A DNA stretch of 32,000 bases from Caldimicrobium thiodismutans (GCF_001548275.1 NZ_AP014945.1:30001-62000); one strand, 5' to 3'. Shown: positions 12,150-30,468, numbered from the stretch's first letter. A program made the numbers and translations. Notes: generated by a model not told the origin, from the letters alone.

Positions 12150-12178
12150 AATTATTTACGATACTCTGGATTTGTCAA
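12150..12178 (-). promoter_or_regulatory. Predicted sigma70-type promoter of ligA, abutting the repeat R end
   Basis: The minus strand reads GGACTTATACA aaagtag TTGACA n17 ATAATT. This is followed by GGGGAGG and ATG 12121. Confidence 0.5.
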
Positions 12179-12216
12179 CTACTTTTGTATAAGTCCTTAA
12201 TTGCCGGTAGAAATAA

Positions 12217-12243
12217 TCAAAAATACAAAAGCCCTCTTTTGTA
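12217..12243 (-). terminator. Weak AU-rich hairpin + T5, possible terminator between lnt and the ligA promoter
   Basis: The minus strand reads TACAAAAG aggg CTTTTGTA, then TTTTTGA. The stem is 8 bp but AT-rich, so its stability is doubtful. Confidence 0.25.
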
Positions 12244-12266
12244 TGTAGATTTCTTGATGTTATAAT
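12239..12266 (+). promoter_or_regulatory. Predicted strong promoter inside repeat copy A (extended -10)
   Basis: TTGTAT (12239-12244), a 16-nt spacer ending in TGT, then TATAAT (12261-12266). It points toward the 20-codon ORF and antisense to lnt. Confidence 0.45.
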
Positions 12267-12290
12267 ATCACCCAGGAGGTGAAACCCAAA

Positions 12291-12353
12291 ATGGAGGCTT
12301 TTTATATGACAAAACAAATGCTCTTTTCATTCAAAATAGGTCAAAGAACATAA
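12291..12353 (+). CDS. 20-codon ORF inside repeat copy A (MEAFYMTKQMLFSFKIGQRT)
   Basis: AGGAGGTG at 12274-12281 lies 9 nt before ATG 12291. A TTGTAT-n16-TGTTATAAT promoter sits directly upstream. The product has no recognisable family, and translation is inferred from these signals only. Confidence 0.25.
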   Translation: MEAFYMTKQMLFSFKIGQRT

Positions 12354-12623
12354 GAATTCCCTTAATGGTTAACTGAAAGACTAAAAGCTGGATAGTATCT
12401 AAATTTTGGAACTTCTACCGGCAAATTTGGGATATTTATAAAAATTGATTGCGATTCAGGGTTTTAAATTTTGAACCCTTACATGGGGCTGACACCTTAG
12501 GTCTACCAGCTCTTTAACCTCTCACCTCTCACTTCTTAACCCTTACCACCCTTTCTTTTTTTGTAAGAATATAAATTTATTCACCTTTTGTATAGCTTTA
12601 TTTCAATTCTAACTATATAAATT

Positions 12624-14297
12624 TTAGCCTCTTTTTAAAGGTCTAAATAGAATATTTAAATGAGCATAAGAGGAAAAAGGGCTGAATTTTTTGGCAATTT
12701 TTAAAATCAAAAAAAGACCAGAGATTATTAGAGCAATATAGGGAAAGAGATACCCATATCTTTGAAAGAAACTTTGATATCTAAAAAGTTTTATCTCACC
12801 AGATAAAATCTCTTCTTTTTCTAAATCGCTTTTAAAAACAACTCTTCCAAGGGGATCAATGATTCCACTTATTCCAGTGTTTGCGGACTGAAGGGTAAAA
12901 CGCCTTCCTTCAACTGCTCGCACAAGGGCCATTTGAAAGTGCTGATATGGTGCTGAGGTTTTTCCAAACCAGGCGTCGTTAGTGGCAATGAAAATAAGCT
13001 CTCCTCCTTTTTGCAATCGTTTGACGAGTATCTGAGAAAAGGCACTTTCAAAACAGATTAGAGGAACAATCTGTAAATTTCCTTTAGAAAAGGGGATATT
13101 GAGATTTTTTGATTCCCCGGGTTTAATAATATCTGATACCACAGAAATCCTTTTCAAAAAGGGGAAATACTTCACCAAAGGAACATATTCCCCAAAGGGC
13201 ACAAGCTTTTCTTTATCATAGAGGTCTTCAACATTACTACCTGTCCAAACAAGAAGGCTATTATGGACCTTGGGGATTCCTTCGGTGAAACTTACCCTGA
13301 AGATTCCAAAAATGAGGGCAAAGGGCTTTATATTTTCTGCTGAAACCCTTAAGTAAAGGTCCTGTAAAAAACTAAGGTATTTAAGGGTTGGTTCTCGATC
13401 ATAAGGGAAATAGAAGGGAAGGGCTGTTTCAGGATAAAAGATAAGATTTGGCCTTTCCTTTAAAGCATTTATGGTAAGGGATTGGTAAGTTTTTAAAGAT
13501 ATCTCTATTTCTTTAGCTTCTTTGAGCTCTTGAGGTATATTTCCTTGAAGGATACTAACCCTTAGGGTTTCTTTATTTTCATTAAGTAAGGTCATCCATT
13601 TTTGCTTGCTATAATAACCATAAAAAGGAATAAGAAGGATAAGCATTCCAAATAAAAGAACCTGAAGGAGAAAATTTTTAGATTTATATGTAAAATTGGA
13701 AAATCCTTTGTATAAAAAATAAAAGTAGTAGTTAACTATAAAAACCATGAAACTTAGACCCCAGATACCAAAAAGATCAGCCACTTGAAGAAAGAGAGAA
13801 AAATTGCTAAGGGGATAACCTGTAAGTCCCCAGGGGAAACCGGTAAGAAGGGTAGATCTTAAAAATTCAAGGGCAACATACAAGTTTCCTGCAAGCATTC
13901 CCTTAAAAAAGGAAGGTCGGCTAAAGGTATCAAGGAAAGAAGCAAGATATAAAAAAAGAAAATAATATAGTGAAAGATAAGTTGAAAGAATTAAAAGAAT
14001 TATAATTGCTAAGGGATAGGGGATTTGACCATACTTAACAAGGGTATAAACAATCCAGTAAAGGAGAATTGAGTAAAAGGGAATTCCAAAAAAAAGAGAG
14101 ATTTTAAAGAGAGAAAGAATTTTTTTTTCCTTCTCTGCAGTTATCCAGAAAAGAGGAATAAAGGCAAAAAATATCAAAATTGATAAATTTGCCTTAGGGA
14201 AGCTCAGCCCGGTAAGAACAGCTGAAAAAAAGGGTAAAAAAAAGAACCTAAGGGATTTTTTTGATACGGACTTCTTTAATCTGTTTTTCATCTGCAT
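12624..14297 (-). CDS. lnt: Apolipoprotein N-acyltransferase
   Basis: 557 aa with a polytopic N-terminus and a CN-hydrolase domain (YPETALPF, VPFGEYVP, PLICFESAF with the catalytic Cys). It follows corC as in E. coli. The start overlaps the upstream gene by 50 nt, and no alternative downstream start is visible. Confidence 0.9.
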   Translation of the reverse strand: MQMKNRLKKSVSKKSLRFFFLPFFSAVLTGLSFPKANLSILIFFAFIPLFWITAEKEKKILSLFKISLFFGIPFYSILLYWIVYTLVKYGQIPYPLAIIILLILSTYLSLYYFLFLYLASFLDTFSRPSFFKGMLAGNLYVALEFLRSTLLTGFPWGLTGYPLSNFSLFLQVADLFGIWGLSFMVFIVNYYFYFLYKGFSNFTYKSKNFLLQVLLFGMLILLIPFYGYYSKQKWMTLLNENKETLRVSILQGNIPQELKEAKEIEISLKTYQSLTINALKERPNLIFYPETALPFYFPYDREPTLKYLSFLQDLYLRVSAENIKPFALIFGIFRVSFTEGIPKVHNSLLVWTGSNVEDLYDKEKLVPFGEYVPLVKYFPFLKRISVVSDIIKPGESKNLNIPFSKGNLQIVPLICFESAFSQILVKRLQKGGELIFIATNDAWFGKTSAPYQHFQMALVRAVEGRRFTLQSANTGISGIIDPLGRVVFKSDLEKEEILSGEIKLFRYQSFFQRYGYLFPYIALIISGLFLILKIAKKFSPFSSYAHLNILFRPLKRG

Positions 14298-29000: not shown

Positions 29001-30001
29001 TTAGCATCTCTCCTCTCATAGGCATCAATGATTTTTTGCACAATAGGATGTCTCACTACATCTTTTTTGGTAAAATAAACAAAGGTTATCCCATCAATGC
29101 CCTCAAGGAGCTCCATGGCCTCAAGAAGGCCGGATTTCTTTGGCTCAGGCAAATCAATCTGGGTCACATCTCCAGTTATAACTGCTCTTGAGCCTTGGCC
29201 AATGCGAGTTAAAAACATCTTCATCTGTTCTGTTGTAGTATTTTGAGCTTCATCCAGGATAATAAAGGCCTCATTTAGGGTTCTTCCGCGCATAAAGGCA
29301 AGGGGAGCAACCTCAATCACACCCTTTTGAAAGAGCTTCACTACTCTATCAAAGGAAAGCATATCATAAAGGGCATCATAAAGGGGTCTCAAGTATGGAT
29401 TAACCTTTTCAACAAGGTCACCAGGAAGAAATCCAAGCTTTTCTCCAGCCTCAACAGCAGGTCTTACCAAAATGATCCTATTTACCTCTCCTCTCATCAG
29501 GAAAGAAACCGCCATAGCAACAGCTAAATAGGTTTTACCTGTTCCAGCAGGACCAATTCCAAAAACAATTTCTGACCTCCTTATAGCCTCTACATAATTT
29601 TTCTGGGTTATCCCCTTAGGGGAGACAGATTTTCTTCCAGAGGTTATAAGAATGGTATCTAAGAAGATATCCTTTAAGTGGGCCTTAGGGTTTTCAAGGA
29701 GGATCCTTGAAGCATATTCTACATCTGCTGGATAAATGGTATAACCAGCTTTTATAAGGGTATAAAGCTCCTCAAGGGTCTTTTCCGTAAGATCAAGATC
29801 CTCTGGTTCTCCAGAGATAACTATATGATTACCTTTAAGGATTAACTTTACTTTAAAGGCATCCTCAAGAATTTTAAAATGACTCCCCCTTTCACCATAA
29901 AGAGAGCGCACAACTGGATAATCTTCAAAGATAAGTTCCTTGGTGTAAAGATTTTCCTGAGGGGTTACCTCAGCAACTTCACTTCTTAATTTTGCTGTCA
30001 T
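28997..30001 (-). CDS. phoH: PhoH-like ATPase (YbeZ family)
   Basis: 334 aa with Walker A GPAGTGKTYLAVA, Walker B ILDEAQN, and an N-terminal KH-like region. Confidence 0.92.
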   Translation of the reverse strand: MTAKLRSEVAEVTPQENLYTKELIFEDYPVVRSLYGERGSHFKILEDAFKVKLILKGNHIVISGEPEDLDLTEKTLEELYTLIKAGYTIYPADVEYASRILLENPKAHLKDIFLDTILITSGRKSVSPKGITQKNYVEAIRRSEIVFGIGPAGTGKTYLAVAMAVSFLMRGEVNRIILVRPAVEAGEKLGFLPGDLVEKVNPYLRPLYDALYDMLSFDRVVKLFQKGVIEVAPLAFMRGRTLNEAFIILDEAQNTTTEQMKMFLTRIGQGSRAVITGDVTQIDLPEPKKSGLLEAMELLEGIDGITFVYFTKKDVVRHPIVQKIIDAYERRDAK

Positions 30002-30270
30002 ACTATTCCCTTCCTAAGTTTTTTTCTATATGTTAGATTTTAAAAAAATTTTTTCAAGAGGTTGTTTAAGTCCCAATCTTTGGTTGAATGTGGGGGCGAA
30101 TTACTTTTTAGTTGAAACCTGCCCTGTAAATATTATTCAAAAAATAATTGACCTGGGTTGAGTGTATCTGTCTGTGGCAGGCCTGCCTTAATTAACTACC
30201 TGTATAAGTTCAGATCCTTACAAGAAAAAAGGAAGGGTGGTAAAAGAGGAATTAGATATCTATACAAGTC

Positions 30271-30351
30271 TGAAAGTAACACAGGCAATCTTGCCTGTAA
30301 AAGTAAATTACACTCCAAGGTATGAAAGTAACACAGACAAGAATGTCTGTG
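30271..30351 (+). repeat. Tandem hairpin units inside copy D (TGAAAGTAACACAG[G/A]CA...)
   Basis: Unit 1 is TGAAAGTAAC + ACAGGCAA tc TTGCCTGT. Unit 2, 52 nt later, is TGAAAGTAA + CACAGACA agaa TGTCTGTG. The same pair occurs in copy C at 25659-25742 on the opposite strand. Confidence 0.7.
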
Positions 30352-30366
30352 CTACAACATACCCCC

Positions 30367-30401
30367 AAAAAAATTCAAGGGGTATAAAATTTTAAACCCC
30401 T
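30367..30401 (-). terminator. Terminator-like palindrome + T7 inside copy D
   Basis: The minus strand reads AGGGGTTTAAAATTTTATACCCCT, then tgaaTTTTTTT. It has the same position and orientation relative to the element as in copy C. Confidence 0.4.
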
Positions 30402-30440
30402 ACTATTTAAGTCTCAAAAGATATGGACGCATACAATACA

Positions 30441-30468
30441 TTGACAAGCTTAAAAAGTCTTATATAAT
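30441..30468 (+). promoter_or_regulatory. Predicted sigma70-type promoter of bioY-purD, abutting the repeat R end
   Basis: GGACGCATACA ataca TTGACA n16 TATAAT. This is a near-consensus promoter, followed by GAGGTG and ATG 30496. Confidence 0.6.

Follow-up and report, generated by a model that had tools for sequence, protein, structure and literature searches.

Promoter-targeted integration is rare in bacteria; the cases so far are tied to a single transposase superfamily and come mostly from Firmicutes. TnGBS elements were reportedly the subject of an earlier paper by Brochet in 2009. TnGBS, ISLre2 (p-MULT 3), and ISKra4 (p-MULT 4) are prokaryotic Mutator-like DDE transposons, a group characterized by a Mutator-type DDE transposase with an N1-N2 signature motif (Guerillot et al. 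2014, PMC3942029). Their insertion is oriented and takes place upstream of sigmaA promoters, with the adjoining IRr 13–17 bp from the -35 box; they generate direct repeats of 8–9 bp and are bounded by inverted repeats of 18–39 bp with a conserved terminal cytosine (PMC3942029). IS256 inserts essentially at random and produces 8-bp duplications, and the eukaryotic retroelements that target promoters, such as Ty3 at Pol III start sites, have been cited as an analogy for promoter targeting (PMC3942029).

Here, we describe a family of short repeats in Caldimicrobium thiodismutans, studied in a window of 32,000 nucleotides (the whole stretch of DNA analysed; GCF_001548275.1, NZ_AP014945.1:30001-62000) and in sequence from relatives. 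Like TnGBS, ISLre2, and ISKra4, the repeats are intergenic and keep a short and fixed spacing from a sigma-70/sigmaA -35 box that lies downstream, with the putative IRr on the promoter side. As in those elements, an asymmetry between L and R ends could set the orientation, and the promoters, which belong to the host, are left intact. The differences are in detail and in form. The Caldimicrobium repeats lie 4–7 bp (mode 5) from the -35 hexamer instead of 13–17 bp, a geometry roughly one helical turn closer than that of TnGBS/ISLre2. They are non-coding derivatives of 77–398 bp, whereas TnGBS, ISLre2, and ISKra4 are IS elements or ICEs. Their termini are TG...CA (...TATACA / TGTATA...) with the C in the penultimate position, in contrast to the terminal cytosine of Mutator-like inverted repeats. 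Unlike the described elements, they have no detectable 8–9 bp direct repeat, and the copies are old. Their host belongs to Thermodesulfobacteriota, a phylum outside those listed for TnGBS, ISLre2, and ISKra4 (PMC3942029). Promoter-phased insertion is thus already precedented by these elements (PMC3942029), and what looks new here is the spacing, the phylum, and the miniature form. The reading that we favour, with a probability of about 0.68, is that the repeats are old MITE-like copies, inserted one way round just upstream of pre-existing sigma-70-type -35 hexamers.

Structure and copies of the repeat family

The sample consists of 11 R-type ends, taken from ~40 kb of C. thiodismutans, which holds nine of them, and from fragments of relatives (Table 1). 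Five belong to the copies quoted in an earlier, sequence-only reading (A–E). The other six comprise one more in the window (F), three past its right edge that come from a 99%-identical strain (G, H, and I; L014), and one apiece in two other Caldimicrobium species (J in L016 and F' in L017).

Copies A, B, C, D, G, and I are bounded on both sides by terminal inverted repeats (TIRs) of ~16 nt, TGTATAAGTYCATATC. Inward of these termini, the subterminal sequences of the L and R sides differ, and the bodies are mosaic among copies. The L side carries an RBS-like stretch, GGAGAGGTGG, which is expected downstream of IRL, and R is therefore taken as IRr. A palindrome, AGGGGTTTAAAATTTTAAACCCCT, followed by a T-run resembles a terminator hairpin; it occurs in C and D and in a variant form in A, and is missing from B, E, G, and I.

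The elements have no coding capacity. A Pfam search of internal frames of at least 35 aa gave nothing credible, the one match (GAUT_1) scoring a sub-threshold 16.7 bits where the cut-off is 22 and being ascribed to chance. Rfam 15 covariance models did not match the elements at gathering thresholds, and at E<1 there were only three chance-level matches, all outside the elements. A distant search of plasmids returned zero matches, and pattern scans of genome and metagenome contigs with the R-end consensus returned chance matches only. The statement that the repeat belongs to no described family therefore holds as far as Rfam, Pfam, plasmids, and contig pattern scans reach. With TIRs, small size, absence of coding, and a dispersed pattern of presence and absence, the elements are non-autonomous and MITE-like. 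Every copy is old and fixed and is common to 99%-identical strains; no recent insertion was seen. Elements of the IS200/IS605 type were ruled out by the clear TIRs.

Table 1. Repeat copies and the promoter-like pairs beside them. Positions are counted from the first nucleotide of the window; for copies outside the window, the source sequence is given instead.
Feature	Position	Strand	Description
ligA promoter-like pair	12150..12178	-	TTGACA (12173-12178)-n16/17-AATAAT/ATAATT, 7 nt outside A's R end
Copy A (398 bp)	12186..12583	-	Between lnt stop codon and ligA; R end at 12186 retains 11 nt, GGACTTATACA; L end at 12583 degenerate, TGAATAAATTTATATTCTTACAAAAAAAG (L-end profile E=3.8e-6)
hldD-like promoter-like pair	16071..16098	-	TTGTAA-n16-TATAAT, 5 nt outside E's R end
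Copy E	16104..16265	-	Left limit approximate, L terminus decayed; R end (16104-16143) well conserved (R profile E=2.9e-8); body aligns to B across 59 nt
Copy B (141 bp)	19681..19821	+	Minimal L+R form, between back-to-back ctpA-like (-) and bamE-like (+) promoters
bamE-like promoter-like pair	19827..19855	+	CTGACA-n17-TAAATA, 5 nt outside B's R end
pilB-like promoter-like pair	25449..25476	-	TTTACA-n16-TAAATT, 5 nt outside C's R end
Copy C (341 bp)	25482..25822	-	Between rsmB-like stop codon and pilB-like start; interior with REP-like hairpins and palindromic terminator-like hairpin
phoH-like promoter-like pair	30030..30057	-	TTGAAA-n16-TAACAT, 5 nt (ACCTC) outside F
Copy F	30063..30100	-	Degenerate solo R-type end at 30063-30078, TGTTTAAGTCCCAATC, 13/16; faces phoH-like gene, L-side to L-side with D
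Copy D (235 bp)	30201..30435	+	Interior matches C at ~87% identity across 218 nt (blastn); ungapped 142-nt C/D core 94% complementary
bioY promoter-like pair	30441..30468	+	TTGACA-n16-TATAAT (12/12), 5 nt outside D's R end
Copy G	L014		Upstream of purK
Copy H	L014		Upstream of tRNA-Pro
Copy I	L014		Upstream of lonC
Copy J	L016		Upstream of tRNA-Gly
Copy F'	L017		Counterpart of F

Phasing of R ends to promoter-like pairs

The five arrangements quoted in the sequence-only reading, upstream of ligA, hldD, and the bamE-like, pilB-like, and bioY genes, are present in the sequence as written. Its claim that the R terminus is phased to an outward promoter-like pair is borne out at 11 of 11 R ends, including the six new ones. 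All 11 have the same orientation and lie 4–7 nt from the -35 hexamer: eight are exactly 5 nt away, and one each is at 4, 6, and 7 nt. Should the element really end at the C of ...TATAC, the 5 nt become 6 nt.

Promoters are defined here as consensus matches to the -35 and -10 hexamers, scored out of 12. In a consensus scan of a 19-kb stretch, the pairs at D (12/12), A (11/12), and E (10/12) are among the best promoter-like sites. A pair scoring at least 9/12 starts 4–7 nt away from 2.2% of intergenic positions (0.022 per position). This level is reached by eight of nine scored R ends, and by the ninth, I, as well when its terminus is correctly placed. Two of the R-end targets are tRNA genes, and tRNA genes need promoters of their own. 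A -35/-10 pair lies 4–7 nt from one of six L ends. The assertion that L termini are unphased needs one correction: the L end of copy B is also near a -35 box, that of the divergent ctpA-like gene, at a distance of 5 nt in strain GCA_017880035.1 and of 13 nt in the window.

It could be reasoned that insertion was random and was followed by filtering, in which survivors were squeezed just upstream of the -35 box and selection fixed their orientation, for example selection against the terminator-like hairpin, which would stop read-through in the R-to-L direction. The gaps that tolerate an insertion are indeed small (12–24 nt between the bamE and ctpA -35 boxes, and 18–79 nt at bioY/phoH in relatives), and with such short spacers in a compact genome purifying selection alone pushes surviving insertions near promoters. 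The palindrome with its T-run would terminate R-to-L transcription only, so that the co-directional sites A and C keep their read-through in the orientation seen. However, filtering predicts a spread of distances, and 8 of the 11 R ends are at exactly 5 nt with none past 7. The orientation is identical in B, E, G, and I, from which the hairpin is missing, and no copy of the family occupies a 3' intergenic or other neutral position in the ~40 kb examined. Filtering is therefore an unlikely source of the pattern.

Boundary of the element

Across the 31 nt just inward of the R terminus, copies have a mean pairwise identity of 76%. Beyond the terminus, identity falls to 25% for the first 5 nt, rises to 71% at the -35 hexamer, and stands at 39% along the spacer, against a background of 33%. 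The similarity between copies ends at ...TACA, and both promoter hexamers are outside the repeat.

This boundary bears on the suggestion of an outward promoter that is contained in, or completed by, the element, as with Correia/NEMIS elements or the -35 box in some IS ends, a suggestion that draws on the strong -35/-10 pair abutting one end of every copy. Correia ends contain -35 and -10 boxes themselves, and the TA is duplicated. The Correia/NEMIS repeats of Neisseria and the Caldimicrobium repeats may be likened to each other as small, TIR-bounded intergenic repeats that lie beside genes and would be able to influence expression, but in Caldimicrobium both hexamers belong to the flanking host DNA. 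The identity between repeat and hexamer is at background, and the same promoters are found at orthologous sites that have no element. An outward promoter in the element is not supported, and we regard it as scarcely credible.

The flanks of D and H give a 63-nt blast match with 62.5% spacer identity. A promoter travelling with the element, for which this likeness was considered, was rejected on the family-wide spacer mean (39% versus 33% background).

Promoters at orthologous sites in relatives

No TIR match is present in L008–L013, L015, or L018–L022, and L016 and L017 have one copy each, at another site and under the same phasing rule. L008, L010, L015, L016, and L020 have empty orthologous sites. 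The bamE-like pair in element-free L008 and L010 reads ATGACA/GTGACA-n17-TAAATA. The bioY pair reads TTGACA-n16/17-TATAAT in L008, L010, and L016, where the site has no element, and the phoH-like pair is kept in L008 (TTGAAA-n16-TAATAT) and L016, again at a site without it. At purK, L015 (90% protein identity) lacks the element and has the same hexamers as L014. The ligA TTGACA is retained in L019 and L020/L021, with no intact copy there as judged by TIR match. The pilB-like pair appears as TTTACA-n16-TAAAAT in the sister species L017, with a different repeat, and is missing in L008/L010, where the genes are only 20–25 nt apart. Site E has no orthologous empty site for comparison, owing to rearrangement of this locus in relatives; upstream of hldD they have either a lactate permease or a cation ATPase, and the window holds a remnant of neither.

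At six sites (ligA, bamE-like, pilB-like, bioY, phoH-like, and purK), the same hexamers stand in relatives that have no element there, and the predicted promoters are therefore read as ancestral, predating the element. On this ground, the promoter-carrying reading is rejected and an operator role is argued against. The remaining option of the sequence-only reading, preferred insertion directly upstream of the -35 box, is supported by the ancestral promoters together with the fixed spacing and orientation.

In an operator role, the R arm would be an exapted regulatory module at about -41 to -70, bound by a protein such as the transposase or a domesticated relative. Copies would be retained for their co-regulation of the genes downstream, and the mobile element would thus have spread a regulon. 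The arm's position is fixed relative to the -35 box, in the region used by class I/II activators and UP elements, and tRNA and housekeeping genes are among its targets. Solo R ends (E, F, H, and J) survive after loss of their L partners; R ends may, however, persist because deletions reaching them would also take an essential promoter. Congeners compared at 78–90% protein identity have these promoters without the module. Several R arms are also badly decayed: A has 11 nt left, several substitutions or indels have accumulated in F and I, and between F and F' the arm has diverged while the adjacent promoter hexamers are unchanged. Nor does the arm resemble a UP element, mimicry of which was rejected by inspection against the UP consensus. 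A regulon operator is therefore quite improbable.

Proposed mechanism of insertion

Under the preferred reading of insertion next to existing promoters, the repeat would be a DDE-type non-autonomous transposable element of C. thiodismutans and close relatives, of which the promoter is not a part. Integration in a single orientation would leave the R end, the putative IRr, ~5 nt from the -35 hexamer. The target may be chosen by a transposase acting in trans, which would recognise either the -35 box or RNA polymerase/sigma in complex with it, and orientation may be set by the asymmetry of L and R ends, as proposed for TnGBS/ISLre2. Targeting in the style of IS110 and bridge RNA is unlikely, the -35 hexamer being the sole feature common to the targets.

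No autonomous element was found, and the gene tables of all loci examined contain no transposase gene, and so we infer both mobility and superfamily. The transposase would come from the IS256/Mutator superfamily, since the termini resemble IS256-family (p-MULT 1) ends: IS256 ends in ...ATTATACGGACTTTATC, ISPeth3 in ...ATTATACGGACTTAACT, and the repeat in ...AAGATATGGACTTATAC(A). ATAYGGACTT followed by 4 nt ending in C is common to all three, and the GGACTT core is the same 4 nt from the terminal C. The Caldimicrobium repeats are promoter-phased with no 8-bp duplication seen, in contrast to the random insertion and 8-bp duplications of IS256. Ty3 is likewise guided to a fixed distance from where transcription starts and spares genes, but its enzymes and hosts are unrelated, and tethering to the transcription machinery is hypothetical for the Caldimicrobium repeats.

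We propose more tentatively, at somewhat short of even odds, that the family belongs to an undescribed promoter-homing system. In such a system, a transposase, probably IS256/Mutator-like, would act in trans and integrate the ends ~5–6 bp upstream in a fixed orientation, and the miniatures would mark a large share of strong promoters, including those of tRNA genes. If true, this would add a second spacing class, in miniature elements of a deep-branching hot-spring thermophile, and the strategy would be more widespread. It would also offer a second geometry for asking how a transposase reads a promoter, whether from the DNA itself or from bound sigma/RNA polymerase. The R ends could serve as natural markers of predicted sigma-70 promoters in an organism without transcriptome data, and the cognate transposase could become a tool for placing cargo beside promoters with genes undisrupted. 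In annotation, such repeats should not be read as promoter-carrying or as regulon operators.

Target-site duplication

Flanking 8-mers gave no signal of an 8–9 bp duplication above controls; the copies are old, and decay is possible. A shorter duplication is weak at best: flanking 5-mers match at a mean of 3.5 of 5 positions, compared with 2.45 of 5 in mismatched-pair controls. The match is perfect in copy C alone (TGGTA/TGGTA), and the flanks of copy A are AAAGG/AAAGT.

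Ends, copies, and interiors of the repeat family

The repeats of C. thiodismutans, a hot-spring sulfur disproportionator of the Thermodesulfobacteriota, are bounded by terminal inverted repeats of ~16 nt (TGTATAAGTYCATATC). The R end, the terminus that faces a promoter-like pair, reads TGTATAAGTCCATATC, then TTTTGAGACTTAAAT, and the opposite L end reads TGTATAAGTTCATATC, then CTTACAAGAAAAAAGGAAGGGTGG. The differences between L and R (GTTC versus GTCC, plus distinct subterminal sequences) are consistent across the family. The complete copies are A (398 bp, beside ligA), B (141 bp, bamE-like gene), C (341 bp, pilB-like gene), and D (235 bp, bioY). 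In copy E, beside hldD, the R end is well preserved and the body aligns with B, but the L terminus has decayed. The interiors form a mosaic: those of C and D are ~87% identical over 218 nt, with an ungapped 142-nt core that is 94% complementary, despite unrelated flanks.

Internal frames of the element contain no credible Pfam domain, the sole match being a sub-threshold chance hit. No Rfam family matches the element, plasmids have no match to it, and no transposase gene is present in any fetched locus; therefore, the element appears to be non-autonomous and MITE-like. Direct repeats flanking the copies are weak (C, TGGTA/TGGTA; A, AAAGG/AAAGT). Flanking 5-mers match at 3.5/5 on average versus 2.45/5 in mismatched flank pairs, and flanking 8-mers give no signal of duplication. 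The window is 99% identical over 21 kb to a 239-kb contig of another strain, GCA_017880035.1 (loci L004 and L014), and every copy is common to both, thus the copies are old.

Phasing of R ends to promoter-like sequences

According to the sequence-only reading, the R terminus of copies A–E lies a few nucleotides upstream of a -35/-10 pair pointing into the adjacent gene, and the five arrangements it quoted match the sequence exactly. In a simple promoter scan of a 19-kb stretch, D (12/12), A (11/12), and E (10/12) have flanks that rank with the best sigma-70-like sites. A search allowing up to three mismatches added a single end in the window (F), and the rightward extension in GCA_017880035.1 holds three more copies (G, H, and I) in a 990-nt lonC/tRNA-Pro/purK spacer. 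L016 and L017, loci of other Caldimicrobium species, have one copy each at another site, both obeying the same R-end rule. The -35-like hexamer is 4–7 nt from the R-type end in 11/11 cases, at exactly 5 nt in 8 of them, and the -10-like hexamer follows 15–17 nt beyond. Such a pair at this distance is found for just 2.2% of intergenic positions. The observation is thereby confirmed and generalised. Its companion, that L termini are unphased, stands for five of six L ends; the L end of B has a pair, as is expected since B sits between back-to-back promoters. At this L junction there is an indel of ~8 nt between the two strains, so that the L end is 13 nt from the -35 of the ctpA-like gene in the window and 5 nt in the other strain.

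Additional ends and other features of the repeats and their surroundings.
Feature	Position	Sequence	Gene
F, R-type end	window 30063-30078	TGTTTAAGTCCCAATC; flank ACCTC-TTGAAA-n16-TAACAT	phoH-like
G, 161 bp	L014	flank AATAA-TTGACT	purK
H, solo R end	L014	flank TAAAC-TTGAAA-n16-TATACT	tRNA-Pro
I, 77 bp	L014	flank TTTC-TTGTTT-n16-TAGAAT	lonC
J, own R end	L016 (78% protein identity)	flank GGGCTG-TTGACA-n17-ATAATT	tRNA-Gly
F', decayed counterpart of F	L017 (sister species, ~90%)	GGGGATGTATACA, then GCCTC-TTGAAA	
L junction of B, indel	window 19672-19681; L014 20320 / L004 6302	window ...GAGTAAAAAAAGG, then GTATAAG; other strain ...GAGTA, then TGTATAAG	ctpA-like
Copy A, extended -10-like, RBS, 20-codon ORF	window 12255-12354 (+)	TGTTATAAT; AGGAGGTG; MEAFYMTKQMLFSFKIGQRT	
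Copy A, 12-nt inverted repeat	window 12205-12216 and 12415-12426	TTGCCGGTAGAA / TTCTACCGGCAA	
Copy A, palindrome variant	window ~12459-12480		
C and D interiors, REP-like hairpin units	window 25606-25747, 30263-30404	GTCTGAAAGTAACACAGGCAATCTTGCCTGTG and GTATGAAAGTAACACAGACAAGAATGTCTGTG	
Decayed L part of E, promoter-like pair	window 16222-16251 (-)	TTGACA-n18-TAAAAT (11/12)	hldD
Lactate permease upstream of hldD	L008 16749-18538		
Cation ATPase upstream of hldD	L019 230-2882		
Palindromic repeat of sister species	L017 7800-7970, 3300-3480; L019 2780-2810, 9530-9930	GGTAGYCGCAACCTTTAGGTTGCG... / ...CGCAGGCTAAAGCCTGCGSCTACC	
Candidate decayed palindromic unit	window 30160-30200	GGCAGGCCTGCC...AACTACC	
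Beta-CASP/MBL RNase	window 22029-23423 (-); L004 2561-3954		
Leader-like region	window 8594-8970	GTCCCTTACTCC...GGGAGTTGAGGGAC	

Predicted promoters outside the element and at element-free sites

One explanation offered for the phasing was that the element itself carries the promoter. Mean pairwise identity, taken over the seven R flanks that align best (six in the case of the inward segment), is 76% in the 31 nt inside the R terminus, falls to 25% in the 5 nt just outside, and is 71% in the -35 hexamer and 39% in the spacer, against a compositional background of 33%. This profile and the unrelated flanks of C and D indicate that the repeat stops at ...TACA and that the promoter hexamers are outside it. 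The comparative data consist of loci reached via exact-protein look-ups only; synteny is kept in congeners, which provides comparable sites free of the element. TIR matches are absent from L008-L013, L015, and L018-L022. The boundary and the empty orthologous sites contradict the explanation that the element carries the promoter, which is rejected; by sequence comparison, the predicted promoters predate the insertions at the compared sites.

Promoter-like pairs at sites with the element and at orthologous sites.
Gene	With element	Orthologous sites
bamE-like	window CTGACA-n17-TAAATA	L008 ATGACA-n17-TAAATA; L010 GTGACA-n17-TAAATA
bioY	window TTGACA-n16-TATAAT	L008, L010, L016 TTGACA-n16/17-TATAAT
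phoH-like	window TTGAAA-n16-TAACAT	L008 TTGAAA-n16-TAATAT; L016 TTGAAA-n16-TATTAT
purK	L014 TTGACT-n17-TAATTT	L015 (90%) hexamers identical; L016 retains TTGACT
ligA	window TTGACA	L019, L020, L021 retain TTGACA
pilB-like	window TTTACA-n16-TAAATT	L017 TTTACA-n16-TAAAAT, different repeat upstream

The rsmB-pilB gap is just 20–25 nt in L008 and L010 and has no such pair, thus the predicted pilB-like promoter is younger. At the corresponding point L008 carries TGGTA, the 5-mer found on each side of C. All relatives have a rearranged locus at site E, with a lactate permease upstream of hldD in L008 and L020, and a cation ATPase in L019. Neither gene is present in window 15976-16539, and no remnant was found there by blastn or tblastx.

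The sister species (~89–90% protein identity) has a different and abundant family of palindromic repeats, which there likewise precedes the pilB-like, phoH-like, ligA, and hldD promoters; its end is 13–14 nt before the -35 in two cases. The window may contain a decayed unit of it.

Another explanation was that the R arm is an operator defining a regulon. This is unlikely, as the same promoters in congeners are without the module, the R arms of A, F, and I are badly decayed, and the arm has diverged between F and F' while the neighbouring hexamers are conserved.

Probable oriented insertion and its relation to known systems

The remaining explanation, preferential insertion just upstream of the -35, is supported by the 5-nt mode and by the R end always being proximal. 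Random insertion followed by purifying selection would also enrich promoter-proximal positions in a compact genome, and divergent -35 boxes in relatives are separated by just 12–79 nt. However, the distances left by such a filter should be spread out, with neither orientation preferred; it predicts neither the single-base mode seen at 5 nt nor the constant promoter-proximal placement of the R end. Oriented, target-specific integration immediately upstream of predicted -35 boxes is therefore favoured over random insertion as the reading of these patterns. The consistent L/R differences (GTTC versus GTCC, subterminal sequences) would set the orientation.

Systems with promoter-adjacent oriented insertion are known but rare, and the Caldimicrobium family would be a variant of them. 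In TnGBS ICEs, the ISLre2 family, and the ISKra4 group, insertion takes place 13–17 bp upstream of the -35 box in sigmaA promoters, with IRr adjoining the promoter, direct repeats of 8–9 bp, and IRs terminating in a conserved C; orientation was ascribed to IR dissymmetry, and contact with the transcription initiation complex was proposed (Guerillot et al. 2014, PMC3942029). The behaviour of the present family is alike in kind. It differs in its spacing of 5–6 bp, about one helical turn closer, in having no detectable 8–9 bp duplication, in its conserved ends, which read TG...CA, and in being miniature, non-coding, and found in Thermodesulfobacteriota. By analogy, the family would act like prokaryotic Mutator-like elements, a likeness in behaviour rather than a claim of membership in the superfamily. 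The ends ...AAGATATGGACTTATAC(A) also resemble those of the IS256 family (IS256, ...ATTATACGGACTTTATC; ISPeth3, ...ATTATACGGACTTAACT; Table S1 of PMC3942029), all three having a GGACTT core that lies 4 nt from a C. Apart from a count in a REP survey, no description of Caldimicrobium repeats was found in the literature. Scans of a genome and a metagenome collection with an R-end consensus pattern gave chance matches only; the genome scan did not return the window's own four exact matches.

Other features of the copies and the window

The 20-codon ORF embedded in copy A has the look of a genuine small gene or leader peptide and runs in the R-to-L direction. The arms of the 12-nt inverted repeat in A, ~200 nt apart, may delimit a second, nested insertion, which could account both for the length of A, the longest copy, and for the retention of only 11 nt of its R end. 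The REP-like units in C and D are 52 nt apart; these interiors also hold a perfect palindrome (AGGGGTTTAAAATTTTAAACCCCT), of which A has a variant. The palindrome has a T-run on one side only and is thus terminator-like in the R-to-L direction. The pair in E, pointing through the element towards hldD, is possibly a second, element-internal promoter.

The G+C content of the window is 34–41%. The window has an intact beta-CASP/MBL RNase gene (464 aa); the annotation of GCA_017880035.1 splits this gene in two (205 + 153 aa), which points to a frameshift or assembly error in that strain. The long leader-like region has a G+C-rich paired stretch and no Rfam match; after it comes a hydrophobic ORF of 29 codons (MWDLLILIAVIALWVFISRFIFPKMGVPV), which is called in relatives' annotations too.
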